Shown piece after piece: positions 25,176-56,721 of a stretch of 64,000 bases of DNA (the stretch's first letter is position 1; each line of letters begins with the position of its first letter). A program made the translations under genes and the position numbers. Source of the stretch: an uncultured Actinomycetota bacterium (GTDB lineage Bacteria; Actinomycetota; UBA4738; HRBIN12). The stretch covers positions 65,746 to 129,745 of the forward strand of contig CAVTEH010000008.1 in assembly GCA_963733635.1 (NCBI GenBank), in the 5' to 3' direction. The notes below the pieces were generated by a model. It saw only the letters and a list, made by a program, of their open reading frames with translations, did not search any database and was not told where the DNA came from.

Positions 25176-26591
25176 GTGGTCGTCAGCCAGGAAGAACACC
25201 TCAAAGCGCTCGACACGGGCTATCGCTTCGACTGGAAGGATCCCTCCCACGCCGTCTTCGAGCCCAAGCGTGGCCTGAGCGCGCAGGTCGTCGAGGAGAT
25301 CTCGGCGCTGAAGAACGAGCCGGAGTGGATGCGCAAGATCCGGCTGAAGGCCCTGCGGTACTTCGACATGCGTCCCATGCCGTGGTGGGGCGCCGACCTG
25401 TCGCGACATCGACTTCCAGAACATCTACTACTTCATCCGCTCTACCGAGAATCAGGCCGCCAACTGGGACGAGCTGCCCGAGGACATCAAGGGCACGTGG
25501 GACAAGCTCGGCATCCCGCAGGCGGAGCAGAAGTACCTCGGCGGGGTGAGCGCCCAGTACGAGAGCGAGGTCGTGTACCACAAGATCAAGAAGGAGCTGG
25601 ACGACCTCGGCGTCCTGTTCACGGACATGGACACCGCGTTGCGCGAGTACCCCGATCTGGTACGCGAGCACTTCGGCACGGTGATCCCGCCCAACGACAA
25701 TAAGTTCGCGGCGCTCAACACCGCCGTGTGGTCGGGCGGGTCGTTCATCTACGTGCCGCCCGGCGTGCAGGTCGACATCCCGCTGCAGGCGTACTTCCGC
25801 ATCAACGCCGAGAACATGGGCCAGTTCGAGCGCACGCTGATCATCGCCGACGAAGGCAGCTACGTGCACTACGTCGAAGGGCTGCTCGGCCCCGATCTAC
25901 ACCAGCGACTCGCTGCACTCGGCCGTGGTCGAGATCAAGGCCATGAAGGGCGCGCGGGTGCGTTACACGACGATCCAGAACTGGTCGACCAACGTGTACA
26001 ACCTGGTCACCAAGCGTGCGGTCGCCCACGAGGACGCCGTCATGGAATGGGTCGACGGCAACATCGGCTCGAAGGTCACGATGAAGTACCCATCGATCTA
26101 CCTGATGGGCAAGGGTGCCCGCGGTGAGGTGCTGTCCGTGGCCTACGCGGGCAAGGGCATGCACACCGACGCCGGCGGCAAGGCCATCCACGCCGCGCCC
26201 TACACCACCAGCGTCATCACCTCGAAGTCCGTCTCCAAGGACGGTGGCCGCACCGGCTACCGGGGACTGGTCCGTGTGGAGCCCGACGCCCACCACGCGA
26301 AGTCGACCGTGCGCTGCGACGCGCTGATCCTGGACGACGAGAGCCGCTCCGACACCTACCCCTACATCGAGGTCGAGGAAGAGACCGCCGCGCTCGGGCC
26401 ACGAGGCCACGGTCTCGAAGGTCGGCGACGACCAGCTCTTCTACCTGATGAGCCGGGGCCTGTCCGAGGTCGAAGCCACCGCCATGATCGTCAACGGTTT
26501 CATCGAGCCCATCACCCGCGAGCTGCCCATGGAGTACGCCGTCGAGCTGAACCGCCTTGTCGAGCTCCAGATGGAAGGTTCGGTCGGCTAG
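25176..26591 (+). pseudogene. sufB: Fe-S cluster assembly protein SufB, at least 3 frameshifts as assembled (probable indel errors)
   Basis: GTG 25176 follows GGGAGG. Stitching ORFs 25116..25703, 25546..26127 and 25925..26686 gives a colinear SufB of about 471 aa ([69 protein letters not shown]). The breaks are near 25403, at 25879-25881 (GGG run) and at 26396-26398 (GGG run). Confidence 0.88.
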
Positions 26592-26600
26592 GGCTGAACG

Positions 26601-27131
26601 ATGCGATCGCACGTCGAGCTCCTGCGCGAGGAGCTCTACGACGCGTATCGCATGATTCGAGACCGGGTCAAGGGACTTTCCGATGAGGAGTTCTGGTGGG
26701 CCCCCGTCGACGATGCATGGACCGTGCGCGAGACCCAGCGCGGCACGTGGGCTGCGGACTACGAGGAACCGGACCCCGATCCCGCGCCGATCACCACGAT
26801 CGGTTGGCGTCTCGTCCACGCGGCGGAGTGCAAGCTCATGTATCACGAGTACGCCTTCGGTGAGGCTCGTTTGACGTGGCCCCAGCTGGATAGTCCGCAC
26901 ACGGCGGCGGACGCGATCGGGGCTCTCGAACGCGGTCAGGATCTCGTCGCAGCAGACCTTCGATCGCTCGACGACGGCGGGCTCGATCGACTGGTGATGA
27001 CGAACTGGGGAGAGACCTGGCCGGCGTGGAGGATCTTCTGGACGATGATCCATCACGATCTCTGGCACGGCGGGGAGATCGGCGCACTGCGGGATCTGTT
27101 CCGCGTTGCAGCGCAAGGTCAGGTTGGGTGA
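26601..27131 (+). CDS. DinB-family (DinB_2-like) protein
   Basis: The product has a four-helix-bundle-type pattern ([37 protein letters not shown]) with His-rich metal-ligand positions. It sits between sufB and sufD. Confidence 0.7.
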
Positions 27132-28811: not shown

Positions 28812-29617
28812 CTGACGACACAGCGACACCAGCTGCTCTCGCCACCCTGGAGGTGCACGATCTGCATGCCTCCGTCGAGGGAAAGCCCATCCTCAACGGG
28901 ATCGACCTGGTCGTGCGACAAGGGGAGACCCACGCGTTGATGGGTCCCAACGGCTCGGGCAAGTCCACCCTGAGCAACGTCATCATGGGCCGCCCGGGCT
29001 ACGTGATCACCGAGGGGAGGGTGGTCTTCAACGGTGAGGACATCACCGTTCTGACGCCCGACGAACGCGCCAAACGGGGCCTGTTCCTGGCGATGCAGTA
29101 CCCCACGGAGGTGCCGGGGGTCAGCGTCGTGAACTTCATGCGGACCGCCTACCAGGCAGTGAAAGGCGAGCAGATCAGCGCACTCGCGTTCCGCAAGCAC
29201 ATGAAGGACCAGATGGACCGGCTCGGCATCGAGGACGCCATGGTGAACCGCTACGTGAACCAGGGCTTCTCAGGCGGAGAGAAGAAGCGGAACGAGGTGT
29301 TGCAGCTCGCCGTGCTCGAGCCTCAGATCGCGATCTTGGACGAGACCGACTCGGGGCTCGACATCGACTCATTGAAGCTGGTGGCCGAGGGCGTCAAGGA
29401 GCTCGTCGGGCCCGGTTTGGGCGTGCTGCTCATCACGCACTACCAACGCATGCTCAACTACATCACGCCCGACCATGTTCACGTGATGCTGCGCGGGCGT
29501 ATCGTGAAGTCCGGCGGCCCGGAGCTGGCCCACGCCCTGGAGGAGAAGGGGTATGAGGGCCTTCGCAGCGAGCTGGGACTGAGCGCCGACGAGGACGAGA
29601 TCGCAGAGGCGGGATGA
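28808..29617 (+). CDS. sufC: Fe-S cluster assembly ATPase SufC
   Basis: Walker A GPNGSGKST, ABC signature FSGGEKKRNE and Walker B AILDETDSGLD. ATG 28808 overlaps the Rieske stop. Confidence 0.93.
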   Translation: MTDDTATPAALATLEVHDLHASVEGKPILNGIDLVVRQGETHALMGPNGSGKSTLSNVIMGRPGYVITEGRVVFNGEDITVLTPDERAKRGLFLAMQYPTEVPGVSVVNFMRTAYQAVKGEQISALAFRKHMKDQMDRLGIEDAMVNRYVNQGFSGGEKKRNEVLQLAVLEPQIAILDETDSGLDIDSLKLVAEGVKELVGPGLGVLLITHYQRMLNYITPDHVHVMLRGRIVKSGGPELAHALEEKGYEGLRSELGLSADEDEIAEAG

Positions 29618-29639
29618 TGAGCGAGCACAGAGGGGCACG

Positions 29640-30858
29640 TTGGACGTCGAGGCGATCCGTCGCGACTTCCCCATCCTGTCCCGCACGGTCGGTGACCATC
29701 CGCTCGTCTACCTCGACAGCGCCGCCACCAGCCAGAAGCCCAACCAGGTGATCGACGCCGAGGCCGACTTCTACCGGCGCCACAACGCCAACGCGCATCG
29801 AGGGATCCACATGCTGGGCGAGGAGGCCACCGAGGCCTACGAAGGCGCCCGGGCTACCGTGGCTCGGTTCCTCGGTGCCCCGTCGCCCGAGACGATCGTG
29901 TTCACGCGCGGGGTCACCGAGTCCCTCAACCTCGTGGCCCAGGGGTGGGGACGGAAGTTCCTGACCGAAGGCGACGAGATCCTGCTCACCGAGATGGAGC
30001 ACCATTCCAACATCGTGCCCTGGCAGATGACGGCGGCGGTCACGGGCGCGACGCTGCGCTACATCCCGCTCACCGACGACGGGCTGCTCGACCTGTCGGG
30101 ACTGGGGTCCTTGCTCACTGAACGCACGAAGATCCTGGGCGTCACCGGCATGTCGAACGCGCTGGGCACGATCACGCCGCTCCGTCAGCTCGCCGATGCG
30201 GCGCACGCAGTGGGTGCCATCATCGCCGTCGACGCCGCCCAGCTTGCACCGCACCTGTCGATCGACGTCGCAGGCGCTGGACGTCGATCTGTTGTGCTTC
30301 ACCGGCCACAAGATGCTGGGACCCACCGCCAGCGGCGGGCTGTTCGGCACGCCTGAGATCTTGGATGCCATGGACCCCATGCTGGGCGGCGGCGAGATGA
30401 TCCACGAGGTCTTCCCCGACCACAGCACGTACAAGCCCGCGCCCTTCAAGTTCGAAGGTGGCACGATGCCGTTGGCTCAGCAGGTGGGCCTGGCGGCCGC
30501 GATCGACTACTTGGACGACTTGGGCATGGACAACGTCCGTGCCCACGAAGAGGAGGTCACCCGCTACGCGCTGGACCGCTTGCTCGACGCAGGCGCCACG
30601 ATCTTCGGCCCCAAGGACGCCAGCATCCGCGGTGGAGCGGTGAGCTTCTGGTTCAAGGACGTGCACCCGCACGACCTGGCCACGATCGTCAACGAGCAGG
30701 GCGTGGCGATCCGCGCCGGGCATCATTGCGCGCAGCTGGTCATGCGTCGGTACGGCGTGCCGGCCACGGCCCGCGCGTCGTTCTACGTGTACAACACCAC
30801 CGGCGAGGTCGATGCGCTGATCGACGCACTCGACCACGCGCAGTCCATCTTCAGCTGA
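29640..30858 (+). CDS. sufS: Cysteine desulfurase SufS (class V aminotransferase); one internal frame break
   Basis: ORFs 29640..30356 and 30196..30858 are colinear with SufS (YLDSAATSQKP, HHSNIVPWQ, FTGHKMLGPT with the PLP lysine, RAGHHCAQ). The break is near 30270. TTG 29640 is in frame. ATG 29617 would be usable only after an indel in the GGGG run at 29632-29635. Confidence 0.88.
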
Positions 30859-32433: not shown

Positions 32434-34250
32434 TCAGCCGGCGGCGTGCGTGCCGTGTGGGGCGGATCGCGGTCGTGTCGATCGCGTGCATCGCCGCGAT
32501 GTGGGTGCCGGCCTCGGCGTGGGCCCAGTTCACCGAACAGATCGACCGCTACGACGTTCGCATCGACATCGGAACGGACGGGTCGCTGCGGATCACCGAG
32601 ACGATCGACTACGACTTCGGCATCTCCGAGCGTCACGGCATCTACCGCGACGTACCCACGCGGCTGGAGTACGACGACACCTACGACCGCGACTACCCCC
32701 TCACCGTGGAAGAGGTCACCGCCAGCGACGGCGCGTCGGCCGACTACGAGGTGGAAGGCATCGCGGGAGGGCTGACCCGGATCAAGATCGGCGACGCCGA
32801 CGAGACGATCTCCGGCGAGCATCGCTACACGATCGTGTATCGGGTCGAGGCGGCGATGAACGGGTTCGAAGAGCACGACGAGCTGTACTGGAACGCGATC
32901 GGCACCGAATGGTCCGTGCCGATCCTGAGGGCCAGCGTGCAGGTCACGGCCCCGGCCTCGATCAGCGCGACCGCATGCTTCCAGGGCCCCCTGCGGAGCA
33001 ACCTGGAATGCGCCGTGCAAAGGACCGATGGGGACCGTGCCAGGTTCGCTCACACCGGTCTCGGCCCATACGACGGGCTCGCGATCGTGGTGGCGCTGCC
33101 GAAAGGGAGCGTGACGAGCACTGCGCCGATATTGACGGAACGATGGAGCATCCAACGCGCGTTCAGCATCTCGCCCGTGACCGGCGGCCTCGCCGGCGTG
33201 ATGCTCGCCGGCTCGCTAGGTGCGGTTGGTGCGCTGCTCTGGCGCAGCGGGCGTGATCGCCGGTTCCGCGGGTCGCCCATCGATCAGGTGATGGGCAACC
33301 CTGACGGCAGCGACGAGTCCGTTCCGCTGTTCGACGCCGACAGCGAGTCTCCGGTGGAGTTCGCCCCTCCGGGCGACATGCGACCCGGGCAGATGGGAAC
33401 CCTGGTCGACGAGCAGGCCAACACGTTGGACGTGTCGGCCACGATCGTGGACCTCGCGGTGCGCGGGCATCTCATGATCCAGGAGATCCCCAAGGAAGGG
33501 TGGTTCGGCAAACCCGACTGGACCCTGATCCGTCTGGAAGAGTCCGCGGAAGGCCTGCTCACCTACGAGCGCCGGCTGCTGGACGGACTCTTCCGAGACG
33601 GCGCCGAGGTGACGATCTCGGCCCTGCGGAACACCTTCGCGACACGGCTCGCGGGCGTCGAAGAGTCGATGTACGTTGACGCCGTCAACCGCGGATGGTT
33701 CCGCGTCCGGCCGGACAAGGTCCGTGAATCGTGGAGGAACCGCGGGATCCTGCTGTTGTTGGTGGGGGCCGCCCTGACGTTCGTGCTGGCGCGGTGGACC
33801 CACTTCGGGTTGCTGGGCATCCCTGTCATCGTGGCCGCGCTCGTGATGGTGATCGGTGCCAAGCACATGCCGTCCCGGACCGCCAACGGCACCGCCATGC
33901 TGCGGCGGGTCCGCGGGTTCCGCCGTGTGATCGAGACGGCCGAGACACACATGTCGCAGTGGGCGGAGAAGGAGATGGTGTTCACCCGGCTCCTTCCCTA
34001 CGCTGTGGTCTTCGGGTGCACCGATCGATGGGCGCGAGCCTTCGAGGCGCTCGGCGTGCAACCGGACACCTCGTGGTACGTCTCACCCAGGCCGTTCGTC
34101 TACCTCGAGTTCGGCCGGGCCATGGACGGGTTCGCGGTGACCACCGGTGGCACGATCGCCTCCACCCCGTCCGGTTCGGGTTCCAGCGGCTTCGGAGGCG
34201 GTGGCTTCTCGGGCGGTGGTGGTGGCGGCGGGGGAGGCGGAAGCTGGTGA
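32430..34250 (+). CDS. DUF2207 domain-containing membrane protein
   Basis: It has a signal/TM segment, then YDVRIDIGTDGSLRITETIDYDF..HGIYRDVP, central and C-terminal TM helices and a Gly-rich tail (GSGSSGFGGGGFSGGGGGGGGGGSW). GTG 32430 overlaps the cax stop. Confidence 0.7.
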   Translation: MISRRRACRVGRIAVVSIACIAAMWVPASAWAQFTEQIDRYDVRIDIGTDGSLRITETIDYDFGISERHGIYRDVPTRLEYDDTYDRDYPLTVEEVTASDGASADYEVEGIAGGLTRIKIGDADETISGEHRYTIVYRVEAAMNGFEEHDELYWNAIGTEWSVPILRASVQVTAPASISATACFQGPLRSNLECAVQRTDGDRARFAHTGLGPYDGLAIVVALPKGSVTSTAPILTERWSIQRAFSISPVTGGLAGVMLAGSLGAVGALLWRSGRDRRFRGSPIDQVMGNPDGSDESVPLFDADSESPVEFAPPGDMRPGQMGTLVDEQANTLDVSATIVDLAVRGHLMIQEIPKEGWFGKPDWTLIRLEESAEGLLTYERRLLDGLFRDGAEVTISALRNTFATRLAGVEESMYVDAVNRGWFRVRPDKVRESWRNRGILLLLVGAALTFVLARWTHFGLLGIPVIVAALVMVIGAKHMPSRTANGTAMLRRVRGFRRVIETAETHMSQWAEKEMVFTRLLPYAVVFGCTDRWARAFEALGVQPDTSWYVSPRPFVYLEFGRAMDGFAVTTGGTIASTPSGSGSSGFGGGGFSGGGGGGGGGGSW

Positions 34251-35245
34251 CGAGGATCGTCTTCTCCGATGACGGGCGTGACTTCCGGCGCCGCGGGTGG
34301 GCCGAGCTGGTCGAGGCCGACCCCGCGGGCACGTTCTTCCACACCCCGGCCTACCTGAAGCTGTACTGGGAGGAGTTCGGCGAGACCCCCGAGCACCTGC
34401 TCCTGGCGTTCGCCGAGGAAGATGACGGAACGCAGGTGGGCGCCGTGGCGTTCGAGCGGATCGACGAGACCCTTCGCTTCCTGGGCGGCACCGAGGTCAC
34501 CGACTACATGGGCCCCGTAGGACTGCCCGGCCGGCAGGACGCCATCGCGAAGGAGCTGTGGTCCGCTCTGCTCGCGCGGGAGGATTGGTCCGGAGCCGAC
34601 CTGCGCGGCCTGCTCGAGGTGCATCCATGGGTCGGTCTGCTCCGCGATGCCGCGGCAGCGCAAGGGCTCTCCGTGGAGGAGTCCGACGACCAGAACGGGG
34701 TCGCGCCGTACCTGCCGTTGGCGCCGACCTGGGACGGCTACCTGGAGACGCTCTCCTCGAAGTACCGGCATGAGATCAAGCGCAAGGCCCGCAAGCTCAT
34801 CGAGGAAGCCGGCCCCTACCGCATCGTGGCCGCCACCAGGGACACCCTCATCCCATTGCTGGATCGGTTCGTGGAGCTCCACCGCATGTCCGAAGGTCCC
34901 AAGGGCGTATTCATGGTGCCGGGCATGGAGATCTTCTTCCGGCGTCTGGGCGAGGCATTCTGCGCCGAGGGCCTGTTCCGGATGACGTTCATCGAGGTCG
35001 GCGGCCAGCTGGCCGCGGGCACGATCGGATTCGAATTCGGCGGCGAGTCGCTGCTCTACAACTCGGCCTTCGATCGAACGTGGGGGAACCTGGCGCCCGG
35101 CATGGTCCTGGTGGGCGAGGACATCCGCCTCGCGATCGAGTCGGGCTGTACCGCCTTCGACATGCTGAAGGGCGACTACCAGTACAAGTACCGATTCGGC
35201 GCCGAGCCACGAGCCGTCAAACGCCTCCAGGTCACCAGGACGTGA
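34247..35245 (+). CDS. GNAT-fold acetyltransferase, BioF2/CelD/FemAB-like (Acetyltransf_6 type)
   Basis: FHTPAYLKLYWEEFG, SSKYRHEIKRKARKL, and the C-terminal YNSAFD...GMVLVGEDIRLAIESGCTAFDMLKGDYQYKYRFGA. GTG 34247 overlaps the DUF2207 stop (GTGA). Confidence 0.65.
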   Translation: MTRIVFSDDGRDFRRRGWAELVEADPAGTFFHTPAYLKLYWEEFGETPEHLLLAFAEEDDGTQVGAVAFERIDETLRFLGGTEVTDYMGPVGLPGRQDAIAKELWSALLAREDWSGADLRGLLEVHPWVGLLRDAAAAQGLSVEESDDQNGVAPYLPLAPTWDGYLETLSSKYRHEIKRKARKLIEEAGPYRIVAATRDTLIPLLDRFVELHRMSEGPKGVFMVPGMEIFFRRLGEAFCAEGLFRMTFIEVGGQLAAGTIGFEFGGESLLYNSAFDRTWGNLAPGMVLVGEDIRLAIESGCTAFDMLKGDYQYKYRFGAEPRAVKRLQVTRT

Positions 35246-35278
35246 CTTTCCGCGCGGGGCGGATCAACACCGTCGGTC

Positions 35279-35565
35279 CTGACCGGGGTCGCCGCGGGGC
35301 ACGCGCCGGCGGCAGCGCTTCCCTCGCTCGTCGCTCCGCGACATCGCTCAGTCCAGATGCTGCCTCTGGCGCGACCCCGCGTCGATACGACGGTCAGGCC
35401 GTGTGCGTGGTGGTGGTTCGCCCGGCGGGCGTGAGAGGCCGAACCGGCGAAGGATCCGGGTGCCGTCCGGAGGACTGCATCTGGACTGAACGAAGCGAGC
35501 GGAGCGAGCGAGAGAGGGGAGCGCAGGCCGCGGGACGGTCCCGGAGCCTCCCCGCCGAGTGCGGG
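35279..35565. repeat. Intergenic repeat copy A (~287 bp, internally quasi-palindromic); inverted partner at 36957..37250
   Basis: A hand alignment to the reverse complement of 36957..37250 gives roughly 90% identity across the full length. For example, GGGGTCGCCGCGGGGCACGCGCCGGCGGCAGCGCTTCCCTCGC is identical in both, and so is CCGGGTGCCGTCCGGAGGACTGCATCTGGACTGAACGAAGCGAGCG. The copy lies between convergent genes. Confidence 0.85.
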
Positions 35566-35596
35566 GGTCTTGCCTCATGCACCGACCAGCCAGCGG

Positions 35597-36319
35597 TCAG
35601 GCCGGTTCGATGCGTCCGGTTGCCAGGGTTGAGCCGTTGTCGCGGGTGAGCGTGACTCGATCGAAGGGTTGAAGGTCGACGGACGTCACGAGCCATCCGT
35701 AGCCGTCGCCGTCGCGGTCGATCGAGATGGGCCATGTGTCCAGGGTTCGGCCGTCGGCCGTACGAAGCGTGGCGATCGCCTCACCCGAGACTCCCGAGGT
35801 CCGCACGAAGACGAGCACCCACGATTGATCGACGTGGGAGTCGTAGACGACCACGCTGCCGTCCAGTGGCTGGTGGCCTGTCGACGAGAGCTTGCCCAGG
35901 CGGAAGTCCTTGCCTCCCAACGTTTCGAGCAGCCGGTCGTAGCTCTGCGCCCCGTCTGCCGCCACCTGCGCCCGCTGCGTCTGGACCGCGGCGACGCTCA
36001 CCGACGCGACCAGCAGCGCGGCCACGACCGCCGCGGCGATGAGCATCCAGGTGGGCCGACGTGTCGCGCCTCGCTGGCCGTCGAGATCTCGCCACTCCTC
36101 TTGGAGCGCGGCCCGGACCTGGTCCTGGAGCTCGGGCGGTGGCACACCGTCGTGGACGGCTCGCGCGAAGAGCCCGAGGCCCTCGCTCAGATCGTTCATC
36201 TCGCTCCGGCATGCGGCGCAGCCCCGCAGGTGCCGGCGGGTCGAGCGGTCTTCGTCCGCGCTCAGCGTGCCCAGCACGTGCTCTGCTGCCCGCTCGCGAA
36301 TCTGTTCACACGTCGTCAT
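35597..36319 (-). CDS. Anti-sigma factor (zf-HC2 type, single-pass membrane)
   Basis: ATG 36319 gives MTTCEQIRERAAEHVLGTLSADEDRSTRRHLRGCAACRSE (an H-x3-C-x2-C zinc motif). A TM helix (WMLIAAAVVAALLVASVSVAAV) and an extracytoplasmic domain follow. The gene overlaps the sigma gene's 3' end by 14 nt. Confidence 0.85.
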   Translation of the reverse strand: MTTCEQIRERAAEHVLGTLSADEDRSTRRHLRGCAACRSEMNDLSEGLGLFARAVHDGVPPPELQDQVRAALQEEWRDLDGQRGATRRPTWMLIAAAVVAALLVASVSVAAVQTQRAQVAADGAQSYDRLLETLGGKDFRLGKLSSTGHQPLDGSVVVYDSHVDQSWVLVFVRTSGVSGEAIATLRTADGRTLDTWPISIDRDGDGYGWLVTSVDLQPFDRVTLTRDNGSTLATGRIEPA

Positions 36320-36887
36320 GGATGTCCTCCGACATCGCCTCGCGCAGGCGAAGCAGCGCGGTGCGGATGCGGGTCTTGGCGGTTCCCACGGGGATCCCTT
36401 CCAGCTCGGCGACCTCCGCGCTGGTCTTGCCGCCGAAGTAGGCCAGCTGCAGCGCCGCACGTTGTTCCGCGCTCAGTGAGGTCATGGCCTGTCGCGCTCG
36501 GTCTGCAAGGTCGCCCGTCGCGGCGAGCTCGTCTGGCCCGGCGCCCGGGTCGGTGTCGCCGGGCGCGCCAGTGGCTTGCAACGAGCGTACCTCAAGCACG
36601 CGCCGACGCAGCGAGTCGATCGCGAGCGACCGGGCCATGAGCAACACCCACGTTTCCAGCCTGCCCCGTGTGGTGTCGTAGCGATCGGCGCTGCGGAACA
36701 CCTTCACGAAGGTGTCCTGCACCAGATCCTGCGCGGCGGCATCACTGCCCAACATCACGATGCCCAGCCCATAGATCCTGGATGCGAATCGCTCATACAA
36801 GGTGTCGGCCGCCCCCTGGTCGCGCGCGGCGAAGGCGCGCATCAACGCGGCATCATGCTCCGGCTCTCGAGTGCTCACATGTGGCAC
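36306..36887 (-). CDS. ECF-type RNA polymerase sigma-70 family factor
   Basis: It has region 2 (AQDLVQDTFVKVFR..TWVLLMARSLAIDSLRRR) and region 4 (LSAEQRAALQLAYFGGKTSAEVAELEGIPVGTAKTRIRTAL). GTG 36887 follows CCAGGAGAACC. Confidence 0.9.
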   Translation of the reverse strand: MPHVSTREPEHDAALMRAFAARDQGAADTLYERFASRIYGLGIVMLGSDAAAQDLVQDTFVKVFRSADRYDTTRGRLETWVLLMARSLAIDSLRRRVLEVRSLQATGAPGDTDPGAGPDELAATGDLADRARQAMTSLSAEQRAALQLAYFGGKTSAEVAELEGIPVGTAKTRIRTALLRLREAMSEDIHDDV

Positions 36888-36956
36888 GGTTCTCCTGGCA
36901 CGTTACTCCCAAGCAATACGAACGAGCGCATCTGTGGGTTTCTCCAAGAGCACAAC

Positions 36957-37250
36957 CCGCCGCGCTCGGCGGGGAGGCTCCGGGACCGTCCTGCGGCCTG
37001 CTTCTTCCCTCTCTGGCTCGCTTCGCTCGCTTCGTTCAGTCCAGATGCAGTCCTCCGGACGGCACCCGGATCTTCGCCGGTTCCGCCTCTCACGCCCCGG
37101 CGGACGAACCACCACCACGCACACGGTCTGACCGTCCTACCGACGCGGGGTCGCGCCAGAGGCAGCATCTGGACTGAGCCGATGCGAGCGAAGCGAGCGA
37201 GCGAGGGAAGCGCTGCCGCCGGCGCGTGCCCCGCGGCGACCCCCGTCAAG
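36957..37250. repeat. Intergenic repeat copy B (~294 bp), inverted relative to copy A
   Basis: See 35279..35565. It has the same 13-bp perfect internal inverted core (TCAGTCCAGATGC at 37036-37048 and GCATCTGGACTGA at 37165-37177), spaced 116 nt apart as in copy A. Confidence 0.85.
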
Positions 37251-37278
37251 CGACGATGACCTTGCTCTTGTCCTCTCA

Positions 37279-38110
37279 CTACGGGAACGCGCGCAAGTGG
37301 CGGAGCACCAGCTCGCTGAGCTCACGGTCGCCGCCGAGGACCACGTTGCCCGACAGGAGGGCGTCGTCGACCTTGAGGCGCTGGCCTGCGACCAGGGCCA
37401 GCTGGGGAGCGCGCCCGACGAGCTGGGCGTCGGGCTTCTTCTCGCCGGCCGGCATCTCGCCGGATCCAAGGCCCCAGTGCCAGCTGCCTTGGCCGGCGCC
37501 GTCGACCTGCACCTCGACCGAGAGGCCCGTAAGGTCGTAACCGGAGCGGCCGAGCGACCAGGGGAGCATGCGGACGGCCAGGTCGATCGTGAGGTAGATC
37601 GGCCAGTGCTGCCACTGCGGGCCGAGGCCGTTGGTGGCGCGCATGTCCTCGCCGTGCAGCCACCATTCCACGACCCGGGTCTGCACCAGGTACTTCGCCG
37701 CGATCGGACCCTCGACGTACTCGAAACGTCGCTCGGCCCAGTCTCGGTCCGAGAGCGTGGCGCAGTGGGCCAGGAACGACCCGGCCGCCTGACCCCACGT
37801 CGTGAGCACCTCGCGCGTGTCTTGGCCCGAGCGACGGTTCACCGTCCAGTGGTTGAAGGCGTCCAGGTCGAACGGAGCCTCACCGAGCTCGGCTCGGAAC
37901 TCGTCGAGCTCGACCGTGGGCTCATCGGCGACGAGCTGGGCGGCGATCGTGTCGCCTGCCGCGAGGTGGGCCATGACGTCGCGATTCCACCAGCCGTCGG
38001 CGGCGCTGGGCTGCTCCCACGTGCTCGGGGTCGGCGTACTGGATCGTGCGTCCCAGTCGCTGGCGCTCGGCGTGGGCCACGCCCAGGAGCTGCTCACGGT
38101 CCAGGCTCAC
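37279..38110 (-). CDS. Mycothiol-dependent maleylpyruvate-isomerase-like (MDMPI/DinB superfamily) protein; one N-terminal frame break
   Basis: GTG 38110 gives MSLDREQLLGVAHAERQRLGRTIQYADP. A shift in the GGGG run at 38026-38029 then leads to STWEQPSAADGWWNRDVMAHLAAGD in ORF 37279..38097. Confidence 0.75.
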
Positions 38111-43550: not shown

Positions 43551-47206
<3,656 letters not shown>

Positions 47207-55498: not shown

Positions 55499-56683
55499 TC
55501 AGGCGCGCTCCAGCACGACGGCGAGACCCTGGCCGCCCGAGATGCACAGGGTCGCCAGGCCCAGCGTCAGGTCGCGCTCGGCGCATCTCGTAGGCGAGGC
55601 GTCAGGATCACGCGCGCACCGCTCATGCCGATCGGATGGCCCAGGGAGATGCCGCCACCCTTGGTGTTGAGCTTGGCGCGGTCGAACTTCAGCTCGCGCT
55701 CGCACGCGATGACCTGAGCTGCGAAGGCCTCGTTGATCTCGATCGCATCGAAGTCGTCGATCGTGCAGCCCAGCCGATCCATCACCTTCTGGGTGGCCGG
55801 CACCGGGCCGATGCCCATGATCTCCGGCGGCACGCCCGCCCACGACATGGCGGCGATCGAGGCGAGCGGCTCGCGTCCTTCCGCCTCGGCGCGCGTGACT
55901 CGCTCATGAGCACCATCGCTGCCGCGCCGTCGGTGATGCCGCTGGCGTTGCCGGCGGTCACGCTGCCGCCCTCACGGAAGACCGGCTCGCAGGGCGGCGA
56001 GGGAGTCCATGGTGGACATCGGGCCGGACGTGCTCGTCGTCGGTGATCGTGCTCGTCTCGCGTCCGAGCCGGGACCTCGACCGGCAACGATCTCGTCCGC
56101 CCGAGAGGTCGGCGCCCTCGGCCGCCAGCTGCTGCGATCGCAGCGCGAACTCGTCCTGCTCGGTTCGTGCAGATGTCGTACATGTCGACGAGGTTCTCGG
56201 CGGTCTCGCCCATGATGAGATCGCAGAGCGGGTCGAACAGGCCGTCGCGGTACATCGCGTCGACCACCTCGGTGTTGCCCAGCCGGTGCCCGAGCCGCAT
56301 GTCGGGCAGCAGGAAGGGCACGCGGGTCATGTTCTCCATGCCGCCGACCAGCACGACCTCGGACGTCGCCGAGCATGGATCTGCTGCGCACCCAGCTGCG
56401 TCGCTTTCATGCCGGACCCGCAGGCGATGTTGACGTTGTAGGCGCTGACTTCCTTGGGGACTCCGGCGCGGATGCTCACCTGGCGCCCGGTGTTGGGACC
56501 GTTGCCGGCCTGGCGCGCGTGTCCCAGGATCGTCTGGTCGACCTGGTCGGGGTCCACGTTCGCCCGGCGCATCGCCTCGACCGCCGCCCGTGTGCCCAGC
56601 TCCACCGCGGTGGTCTCGGCGAACGAGCCCAGGAACTTGCCGATGGGGGTGCGTGCGCCCTCGACGATGACCGCTCGTTCCAT
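55499..56683 (-). pseudogene. Acetyl-CoA acetyltransferase (thiolase), at least 5 frameshifts as assembled
   Basis: MERAVIVEGARTPIGKF, NIACGSGMKA (active-site Cys), VLVGGMENM, SVTAGNASGITDGAAA, NEAFAAQV, GGGISLGHPIGMSGAR, LCISGGQGLAVVLE. These motifs are spread over at least 5 frames/ORFs in colinear order. Confidence 0.88.
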
Positions 56684-56721
56684 GCGGCCAGTCTAGCCGG
56701 CCGGTCCCGGCCGACCCGGCG

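Follow-up and report, generated by a model that had tools for sequence, protein, structure and literature searches.

TRIT, a repeated hairpin of M. tuberculosis, is a short (~50-nt) motif that occurs in many copies. [quoted passage not shown] The window considered here, that is, the whole stretch of 64,000 nucleotides that was analysed, comes from an uncultured Actinomycetota bacterium (UBA4738; HRBIN12; GenBank assembly GCA_963733635.1, contig CAVTEH010000008.1, positions 65,746 to 129,745 of the forward strand), and it holds an operon for an extracytoplasmic function (ECF) sigma factor and its anti-sigma factor that stands between two long inverted repeats, hereafter copy A (downstream of the operon) and copy B (upstream of it). 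An earlier note on this DNA, made from the sequence alone, had presented such a frame around a regulator as unprecedented; pairs of MITEs flanking genes are already known, as TIME-COMPs (PMC13367494), and as a category the claim lacks support. We judge it probable that the pair results from two insertions of a MITE/REPIN-like hairpin repeat beside an old core operon, with the bracket as a by-product, and the frame around the sigma operon is most likely incidental.

A repeat search of the window recovered two collinear inverted blocks, 35280–35567 and 36957–37248, that are 93–98% complementary per block. In a gapped BLASTN self-alignment of the window, 35279–35570 and the reverse complement of 36957–37248 shared 270 of 293 positions (92%; six 1-nt gaps; E = 6e-115), or 94% when the gap columns are dropped, with 17 substitutions between the copies and exact shared blocks of 49, 46 and 39 nt; the first impression of ~290-bp, ~90% identical inverted repeats was thus borne out. 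A nhmmer profile built from seven members of the family matched copy A at 35266–35578 on the + strand (E = 8e-89) and copy B at 36946–37264 on the − strand (E = 1e-93), giving by profile bounds an element of 313–319 nt (~320 bp). The profile puts the ends ~12–14 nt further out on each side than the bounds proposed earlier. No third copy was found in the 64 kb by the profile, and the next-best BLASTN match had an E value of 0.05; counting by profile likewise gave two copies in the window and none elsewhere in 215 kb of related DNA. The parts of the pair are as follows.

35266 to 35578, + strand: copy A, left arm, centre and right arm in the reference orientation (BLASTN, nhmmer and gap comparison with relatives)
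35306 to 35369, + strand: left arm core of copy A, which contains the invariant TCAGTCCAGATGC and pairs with 35467 to 35534 (BLASTN, folds and alignments)
35467 to 35534, + strand: core of the right arm of copy A, where conservation within the family is highest, with CCGGAGGACTGCATCTGGACTGA and GGACGGTCCCGGAGCCTCCCCGCC invariant in six copies
36946 to 37264, − strand: copy B, with termini CAAGAGCA and TGCTCTTG, between the MDMPI_N stop and the sigma promoter-like block

Copy A is located between the convergent stop codons of a GNAT gene (35243–35245) and the anti-sigma gene (35597–35599), starting ~20 nt past the GNAT stop, and copy B between the stop codon of an MDMPI_N-domain gene (37279–37281) and the sigma start, ~8 nt past the MDMPI_N stop. 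The site and orientation of copy B are orthologous to those of element copies in two related assemblies (L007 and L014; loci in other assemblies are numbered in this way). An assembly artefact, in which one copy, probably A, would come from long-read foldback or misassembly, could draw on the many frameshift-split genes of the window, which are typical of error-prone long-read assemblies, and on the presence of copy A in no other assembly. However, after a foldback the inverted copy should match the adjacent sequence almost perfectly, whereas the 17 substitutions between A and B include a compensatory pair and copy A has its own flanks; moreover, copy B was confirmed independently at the same site in three other assemblies. 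An artefact of this kind is extremely improbable. The split genes encode housekeeping proteins, namely SufB (SufBD_N and SUFBD_core pieces), SufS, MetH (three pieces) and thiolase (N and C pieces), in the regions 25348–26686, 29583–30858, 43551–47040 and 55567–56692, and the same kind of splitting affects glycerate kinase and anti-sigma genes in the related long-read loci L007 and L009. In the window they probably represent indel errors of long-read assembly rather than pseudogenes, and for this reason the six 1-nt gaps that separate A from B may in part be artefactual.

The ages of the two copies can be read from related genomes, in which the following genes and the block upstream of the sigma gene serve as landmarks.

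34247 to 35245, + strand: GNAT (Acetyltransf_6) gene, convergent with the anti-sigma gene (Pfam)
35597 to 36319, − strand: anti-sigma factor gene with zf-HC2, which shares 14 nt with the sigma gene (Pfam)
36306 to 36887, − strand: ECF sigma factor gene, with Sigma70_r2 and Sigma70_r4_2 (Pfam)
36905 to 36945, − strand: promoter-like block, GAGAAAC, 13 nt and CGTTCGTA, followed by a GGGAG ribosome-binding site (read from the sequence)
37279 to 38097, − strand: MDMPI_N-domain gene, with copy B in its 3′ region (Pfam)

The coordinates previously assigned to the sigma and anti-sigma genes are correct, and the Pfam domains match. We compared 13 syntenic loci from nine distinct lineages, with the downstream site covered in ten. 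The gene order GlyK / MDMPI / sigma / anti-sigma / GNAT / DUF2207, together with the relative orientations, was the same as in the window at all 13 loci, which makes the operon ancestral and not a cargo. Homologues of the sigma factor are numerous (1298 at E ≤ 1e-30, the best 120 at 73–100% identity), and it can thus be regarded as a core gene of the clade. The distance from the anti-sigma stop to the GNAT stop is 351 nt in the window, and it ranges from an overlap to 27 nt in the ten relatives that cover it; because this gap is empty in all ten, copy A is an insertion unique to the lineage of the window.

The upstream gap, from the MDMPI stop to the sigma start, has a longer history, being empty in six lineages and filled in four. 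It measures 63–105 nt and is free of the element in L008/9, L015/16, L017/18, L019, L020 and L021, it holds the full element in the orientation of copy B in L007 and L014, and in L006 it holds a flipped, internally deleted remnant. In L005 the gap (L005:1847–2631) is 785 nt long and contains an unrelated 182-aa gene together with a 27-nt piece, CAAGAGCGAGAACCATCGGTCCTGGCGG, that matches the left end of the element. A neighbour-joining tree of the flanking genes gave the topology (L014,((L006,L007),(L005,window))), with the element-free lineages outside; since all the upstream-occupied lineages form one clade, a single old gain of copy B fits. In the tree of the elements, A and B are mutually nearest, and a later origin of A from a B-like copy of the same genome therefore fits. 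The element has been kept at orthologous sites although the flanks of the lineages are only 79–84% identical. L005 is also the closest relative of the window (sigma 90% identical); its 27-nt piece lies before the extra gene and is closer to the left end of copy A than to that of B, and the product of the extra gene has a hydrophobic lipoprotein-like N-terminus and no precomputed Pfam match.

The upstream site is still being reworked within a species. Between L006:5819–6000 and L007:5639–6000 the flanks are 98% identical, which places the two loci in the same species, and yet L007 has the full element and L006 a 110-nt remnant. This remnant consists of the reverse complement of the left arm beside the promoter, 84% identical to the L007 arm, with ~15 nt of the other end before it. 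Its origin by simple deletion from the L007 copy was rejected, given the reverse-complemented arm and its identity of only 84% against 98% in the flanks, and the pattern does not fit an arm-to-arm inversion either.

With these comparisons at hand, two explanations that treat the bracket as one unit can be weighed. In the first, both repeats and the operon would have arrived together as a composite transposon, like a TIME-COMP or a transposon flanked by insertion sequences (ISs); two related repeats do surround a discrete transcription unit, and MITE-bounded composites exist (PMC13367494). Against this, the neighbours of the operon do not change from one relative to the next, whether repeats are there or not, the sigma factor has more than 1000 close homologues, A and B were gained at different times, and no duplication surrounds the whole unit. 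The operon being in place at 13 of 13 loci with zero or one repeat, synteny refutes the composite transposon, whose probability we regard as close to nil.

In the second, put forward in the earlier note, the repeats are a substrate for RecA-type homologous recombination, by which A and B would flip the 1.4-kb operon between two heritable orientations that differ in their read-through context. Exact blocks of 49, 46 and 39 nt within inverted repeats of 92% identity make this physically possible, and exact blocks of such length suffice in principle for homologous recombination (minimal processing segments). However, the orientation of the operon relative to its neighbours is ancestral and the same at all 13 related loci, both copies occur together in no relative, so that there is no conserved switch, and the 8% divergence of the repeats reduces recombination. 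The promoter-like block is inside the invertible segment as well; it would flip with the genes, and flipping would therefore neither switch the operon off nor uncouple it from its promoter. Nor was a recombinase found among 48 open reading frames (ORFs) of the window scanned with Pfam, which include the 40 largest coding-like ORFs away from the surroundings of the operon. Inversion thus has no support here and is very improbable as an account of the pair.

The promoter-like block deserves a further comment. A block of GAAC/T, 13 nt and CGT(T/C)CGTA, followed by GGGAG, precedes the sigma start at every one of the 13 syntenic loci, those with the element and those without it, and it is likely an auto-regulated ECF promoter with an unusually short spacing. 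Since this spacing is shorter than in the textbook ECF form, the block is called promoter-like here despite the resemblance. At 36882–36902, past the conserved ribosome-binding site and ahead of the sigma start codon, the window has ~14 nt in duplicate (+ strand: TGGCACG...TGGCACG). This duplication is missing from the relatives, and through it the annotated GTG is preceded by a further AGGAGA-like ribosome-binding site. The only other contig with an identical sigma protein, a 1167-bp short-read contig from Logan (ERR11571139), starts 97 nt upstream of the sigma start, which on the coordinates of the window would be ~27–40 nt inside the promoter-proximal end of copy B, and this start would fit an assembly break at the repeat.

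Copies of the family also occur at loci unrelated to the sigma operon. When 185,579 species, each represented by one genome, were scanned for two invariant 11-mers at the correct spacing, three intact loci emerged (L001, L002 and L003). L003 is in an uncultured Actinomycetes metagenome-assembled genome (MAG), on a 1.49-Mb contig, and its copy is 89–91% identical to the copies of the window; L001 and L002 belong to a single Actinomycetota MAG, on separate contigs, and their copies share 79% identity with those of the window and 90% with each other. In L003 and L002, which are syntenic over 3.4 kb at 78% identity, the element is ~230 nt upstream of an operon for a KdpD-like histidine kinase and a KdpE-like regulator, and in L001 it directly follows the stop codon of a PotA-like ABC ATPase. 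The element has thus been seen in four unrelated genomic contexts, with one or two copies detected per related MAG. When read toward the downstream gene, the sigma-upstream copy is opposite in orientation to the kinase-upstream copy. Among other sequence scans, the metagenome-contig locus L004, from a scan with an invariant 21-mer, was dismissed as chance because only the 21-mer is in common, and four viral-contig loci from a 17-mer scan were rejected because the similarity ends at the 17-mer.

Several features were noticed next to these copies. Upstream of the kinase, L003:7784–7860 and L002:210–283 (reverse strand) share a conserved block, CAGCGCTAAGAAG(G/A)CGTGAAGGTTGC, beyond the element, and in L003 the KdpE-like regulator is followed by a permease of the APC family that may transport K+. 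L001:40–75 contains an 11-nt tandem duplication, TAGAACACACC TAGAACACACC, exactly at the left boundary of the element, and L002 has a similar near-duplicate, GAACACCC AAGAGCACAACCC. Such boundary duplications may represent the footprint of an insertion or else a sub-terminal repeat.

Copies A and B are also long imperfect palindromes in their own right, in which unit positions 28–91 pair with 189–256 at 79% (BLASTN), and for a 311-nt stretch RNAfold gives a single stem of ~150 bp whichever strand is taken (−189 and −175 kcal/mol, z about −5). The earlier description was therefore right in that the pair of repeats is real and incomplete in that this internal palindrome had been missed. The consensus hairpin of six copies has 104 pairs, with 94% of cells paired, and eight pairs have changes on both sides in the six-copy alignment; for instance, L001 and L002 carry a 3-nt insertion that is matched in the two arms, and U-A is exchanged for C-G between A and B. 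Only 0–7 of 500 shuffles matched the observed values of pairing and co-variation, and when the pairing partner was slid by 1–3 columns, pairing fell to ~40%. The arms pair over ~104 bp, the right arm being near-invariant between genomes and the centre variable in the alignments; the termini of copy B form a perfect 8-bp CAAGAGCA/TGCTCTTG match, and those of the other copies are degenerate. Copy B is 88% identical to the L007 element and 80% to the L014 element, against 70% and 63% at the third codon positions of three flanking genes, which indicates that the element evolves more slowly than these largely synonymous sites. Selection, by the host or selfish, or homogenisation from conserved copies are possible causes of this slow change.

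The conserved fold invites two functional explanations. On the one hand, the copies could be paralogous structured RNA genes, that is, a duplicated ~300-nt non-coding RNA gene or cis-regulatory leader rather than mobile DNA. A strong fold with co-variation, one arm near-invariant between genomes, conservation above third codon positions and a location upstream of regulators at two loci (sigma and the KdpD-like kinase) would all be expected of such RNAs. However, both strands fold equally well, the orientations at the sigma and kinase sites are opposite relative to the downstream gene, other copies are at the 3′ ends of genes, and copy B is upstream of the promoter-like block and hence outside a leader. 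Furthermore, arrival in a gap of ≤27 nt between stop codons resembles DNA insertion and not gene duplication, and Rfam gave no match to the element. In the window, Rfam had zero matches at the gathering threshold, relaxed filters gave only a chance snoRNA (E = 1.8), and neither tRNA nor tmRNA genes were detected. We regard RNA genes as quite improbable.

On the other hand, the repeats could be selected insulators, as the earlier note also considered: host-maintained bidirectional terminators or RNA-stabilising 3′ structures, the pair of which would be kept to isolate an auto-regulated sigma operon from MDMPI read-through and from convergent GNAT transcription. The copies begin ~8–25 nt from stop codons, copy B ends just before the promoter-like block, the hairpin is kept with compensatory changes and above third codon positions in conservation, and the element is retained at the same site across lineages with 79–84% identical flanks. 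Moreover, U-tract terminators are often missing in Actinobacteria, which employ hairpins of other kinds, TRIT among them (PMC3384566), and a terminator role has been proposed for MITE hairpins (PMC10969869). As predicted from their positions, both copies would be transcribed as 3′ untranslated region (UTR) hairpins, copy A in the 3′ regions of both convergent genes. A role of the element as barrier or stabiliser is plausible, because the copies sit in 3′ regions past stops and the hairpin is conserved with compensatory changes. The isolating pair is another matter. Nine related lineages are without the downstream copy and six without either, so relatives cope without one or both copies and the frame is not needed by the operon; the orientation toward neighbouring genes varies between loci, and a terminator scan of 34800–37800 scored no site and no U-tract in copy A or B. 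Selection of the pair as insulators is, in our assessment, possible but rather unlikely.

The mobile-element proposal of the earlier note, a MITE/REP-like element landing twice, is the one that the data support, through the presence of the element at unrelated loci elsewhere, the empty state of both sites in relatives and the differing ages of the insertions. The events may have proceeded as follows. The repeat is a non-coding, ~320-bp, almost fully self-complementary dispersed element, found in few copies within one clade of uncultured Actinomycetes, and the sigma/anti-sigma pair is an old core operon inherited vertically. Copy B probably came first, into the short gap between MDMPI and the sigma promoter in an ancestor common to L014, L006/L007 and L005, and would then have been kept or reworked. 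Copy A probably came later, into a 3–27-nt gap between convergent stops in the lineage of the window only, most likely from a B-like copy of the same genome. The element may have been moved in trans, by an enzyme whose gene lies elsewhere and whose substrate was probably a single-stranded hairpin. As a side effect or co-opted role, the copies could act as bidirectional RNA hairpins in 3′ UTRs, as a transcription barrier or RNA stabiliser, which would shield an auto-regulated sigma operon from read-through and convergent transcription. With two separate insertions, the inverted bracket is a by-product and there is no designed cassette.

A number of observations weigh against two insertions of a mobile repeat. 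The remark that no transposase or recombinase was apparent holds among the 48 ORFs, in which Pfam also recorded no Y1_Tnp/RAYT; these ORFs were housekeeping (polysaccharide synthesis, 2-oxoacid dehydrogenase, glycine cleavage, Suf, MetH and thiolase) or had no match. The element had no BLASTN match in plasmid and phage collections, and no partner autonomous element with matching ends was found in the window, the plasmids or the phages. No target-site duplication of consistent length was found across eight aligned copies, some of which had candidates of 4–6 bp, and the ends are degenerate; CGAACC at L014 and CGCC at L006 were each seen at one copy only. For a family of MITEs or REPs the copies are very few, and the analysis rests on seven full copies plus one remnant. 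As regards selection on the arms, their co-variation could arise without function through templated quasi-palindrome correction. Finally, the long persistence of copies at orthologous sites, like their slower change than at third codon positions, is also compatible with an RNA or DNA element that duplicates rarely and is selected by the host.

An explanation in this last direction can be formulated, in which a selected, host-retained hairpin module of ~320 nt would spread rarely as a single-strand hairpin, without target duplication, into stop-proximal gaps and act there as a bidirectional transcription barrier. In this genome the inverted pair would in addition modulate the ECF sigma operon, either through a long-range 290-bp RNA duplex in read-through transcripts from MDMPI to anti-sigma or through rare inversion of the DNA. 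We consider this combination unlikely, and two insertions of a hairpin repeat beside a core operon remain our preferred explanation.

Other candidate identities of the element were also examined. A protein-coding element was rejected, because 1-nt indels between copies break the frames and the overlapping ORFs have no Pfam match. When the concatenated six-frame translation of the element was used as a protein query, none of 8000 word-sharing candidates scored; this failure probably reflects that gene callers call no ORFs on the element, as none are called in L007 and L014. A retron, an attC site, a dif-module and a riboswitch were dropped, given the absence of a reverse transcriptase or integrase nearby, the wrong size, the inconsistent orientation and the location of copy B upstream of the promoter-like block. 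Without a match in Rfam or in the plasmid and phage collections, the repeat family appears to be undescribed.

These results remove an apparent oddity, in that a regulator "framed" by long inverted repeats becomes two independent insertions beside a conserved core operon. They also bring out a repeat with an uncommon set of traits, namely almost entire self-complementarity, very low copy number and persistence at orthologous sites, of which a single species has an intact copy as well as a remnant that is flipped and deleted. The persistence of palindromic repeats, and their possible co-option as terminators, could be studied on this small and clean case in Actinobacteria, a group with few canonical terminators. 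In practice, short-read assemblies are likely to break at the repeat, which is also a potential substrate for recombination.

Compared with known systems, the element differs from a canonical intrinsic terminator, as no GC-rich stem-loop with a U-tract was scored in either copy (34800–37800), and from invertons, with no recombinase among the 48 ORFs, an ancestral orientation at all loci and the promoter-like block inside the segment. It resembles TIME-COMPs (PMC13367494 / PMC4133298) in that two miniature inverted-repeat copies surround a gene set, but here the enclosed operon is ancestral in all relatives, the copies arrived separately and there is no sign of the unit moving. Like TRIT of M. 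tuberculosis (PMC3384566) and like SPRITE of S. pneumoniae (PMC10969869), the element is a conserved hairpin that recurs just past stops, also between convergent genes; unlike TRIT, it is ~320 nt long and rare, and its role in termination is putative. With the REPINs and REP-BIMEs associated with RAYT (PMC3116915; PMC2817692) it has in common a palindromic doublet that forms a hairpin in single-stranded DNA or RNA, an extragenic location, conserved arms around a variable centre, compensatory stem changes and the lack of an obvious target-site duplication, whereas it is about three times longer, of low copy number (three intact loci in 185,579 species representatives) and without a RAYT among the 48 ORFs. 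It differs from MITEs by lacking a clear target-site duplication, by the absence of a parent IS or transposase from the sequences searched, by a self-complementarity that extends over nearly the whole element instead of terminal repeats only, by its very low copy number (two in 64 kb; one or two detected per related MAG) and by its long retention at the same sites. On the other hand, it is similar to bacterial MITEs such as Correia/NEMIS, ERIC and MITEAba12 (PMC10969869) in being small, non-coding and intergenic, in its inverted-repeat arms and stable transcript hairpins, in its presence or absence at orthologous sites and in the dispersal of copies over unrelated loci. On these comparisons, the element would best be filed with the bacterial MITEs and the REPIN-type palindromic repeats, as a new family.

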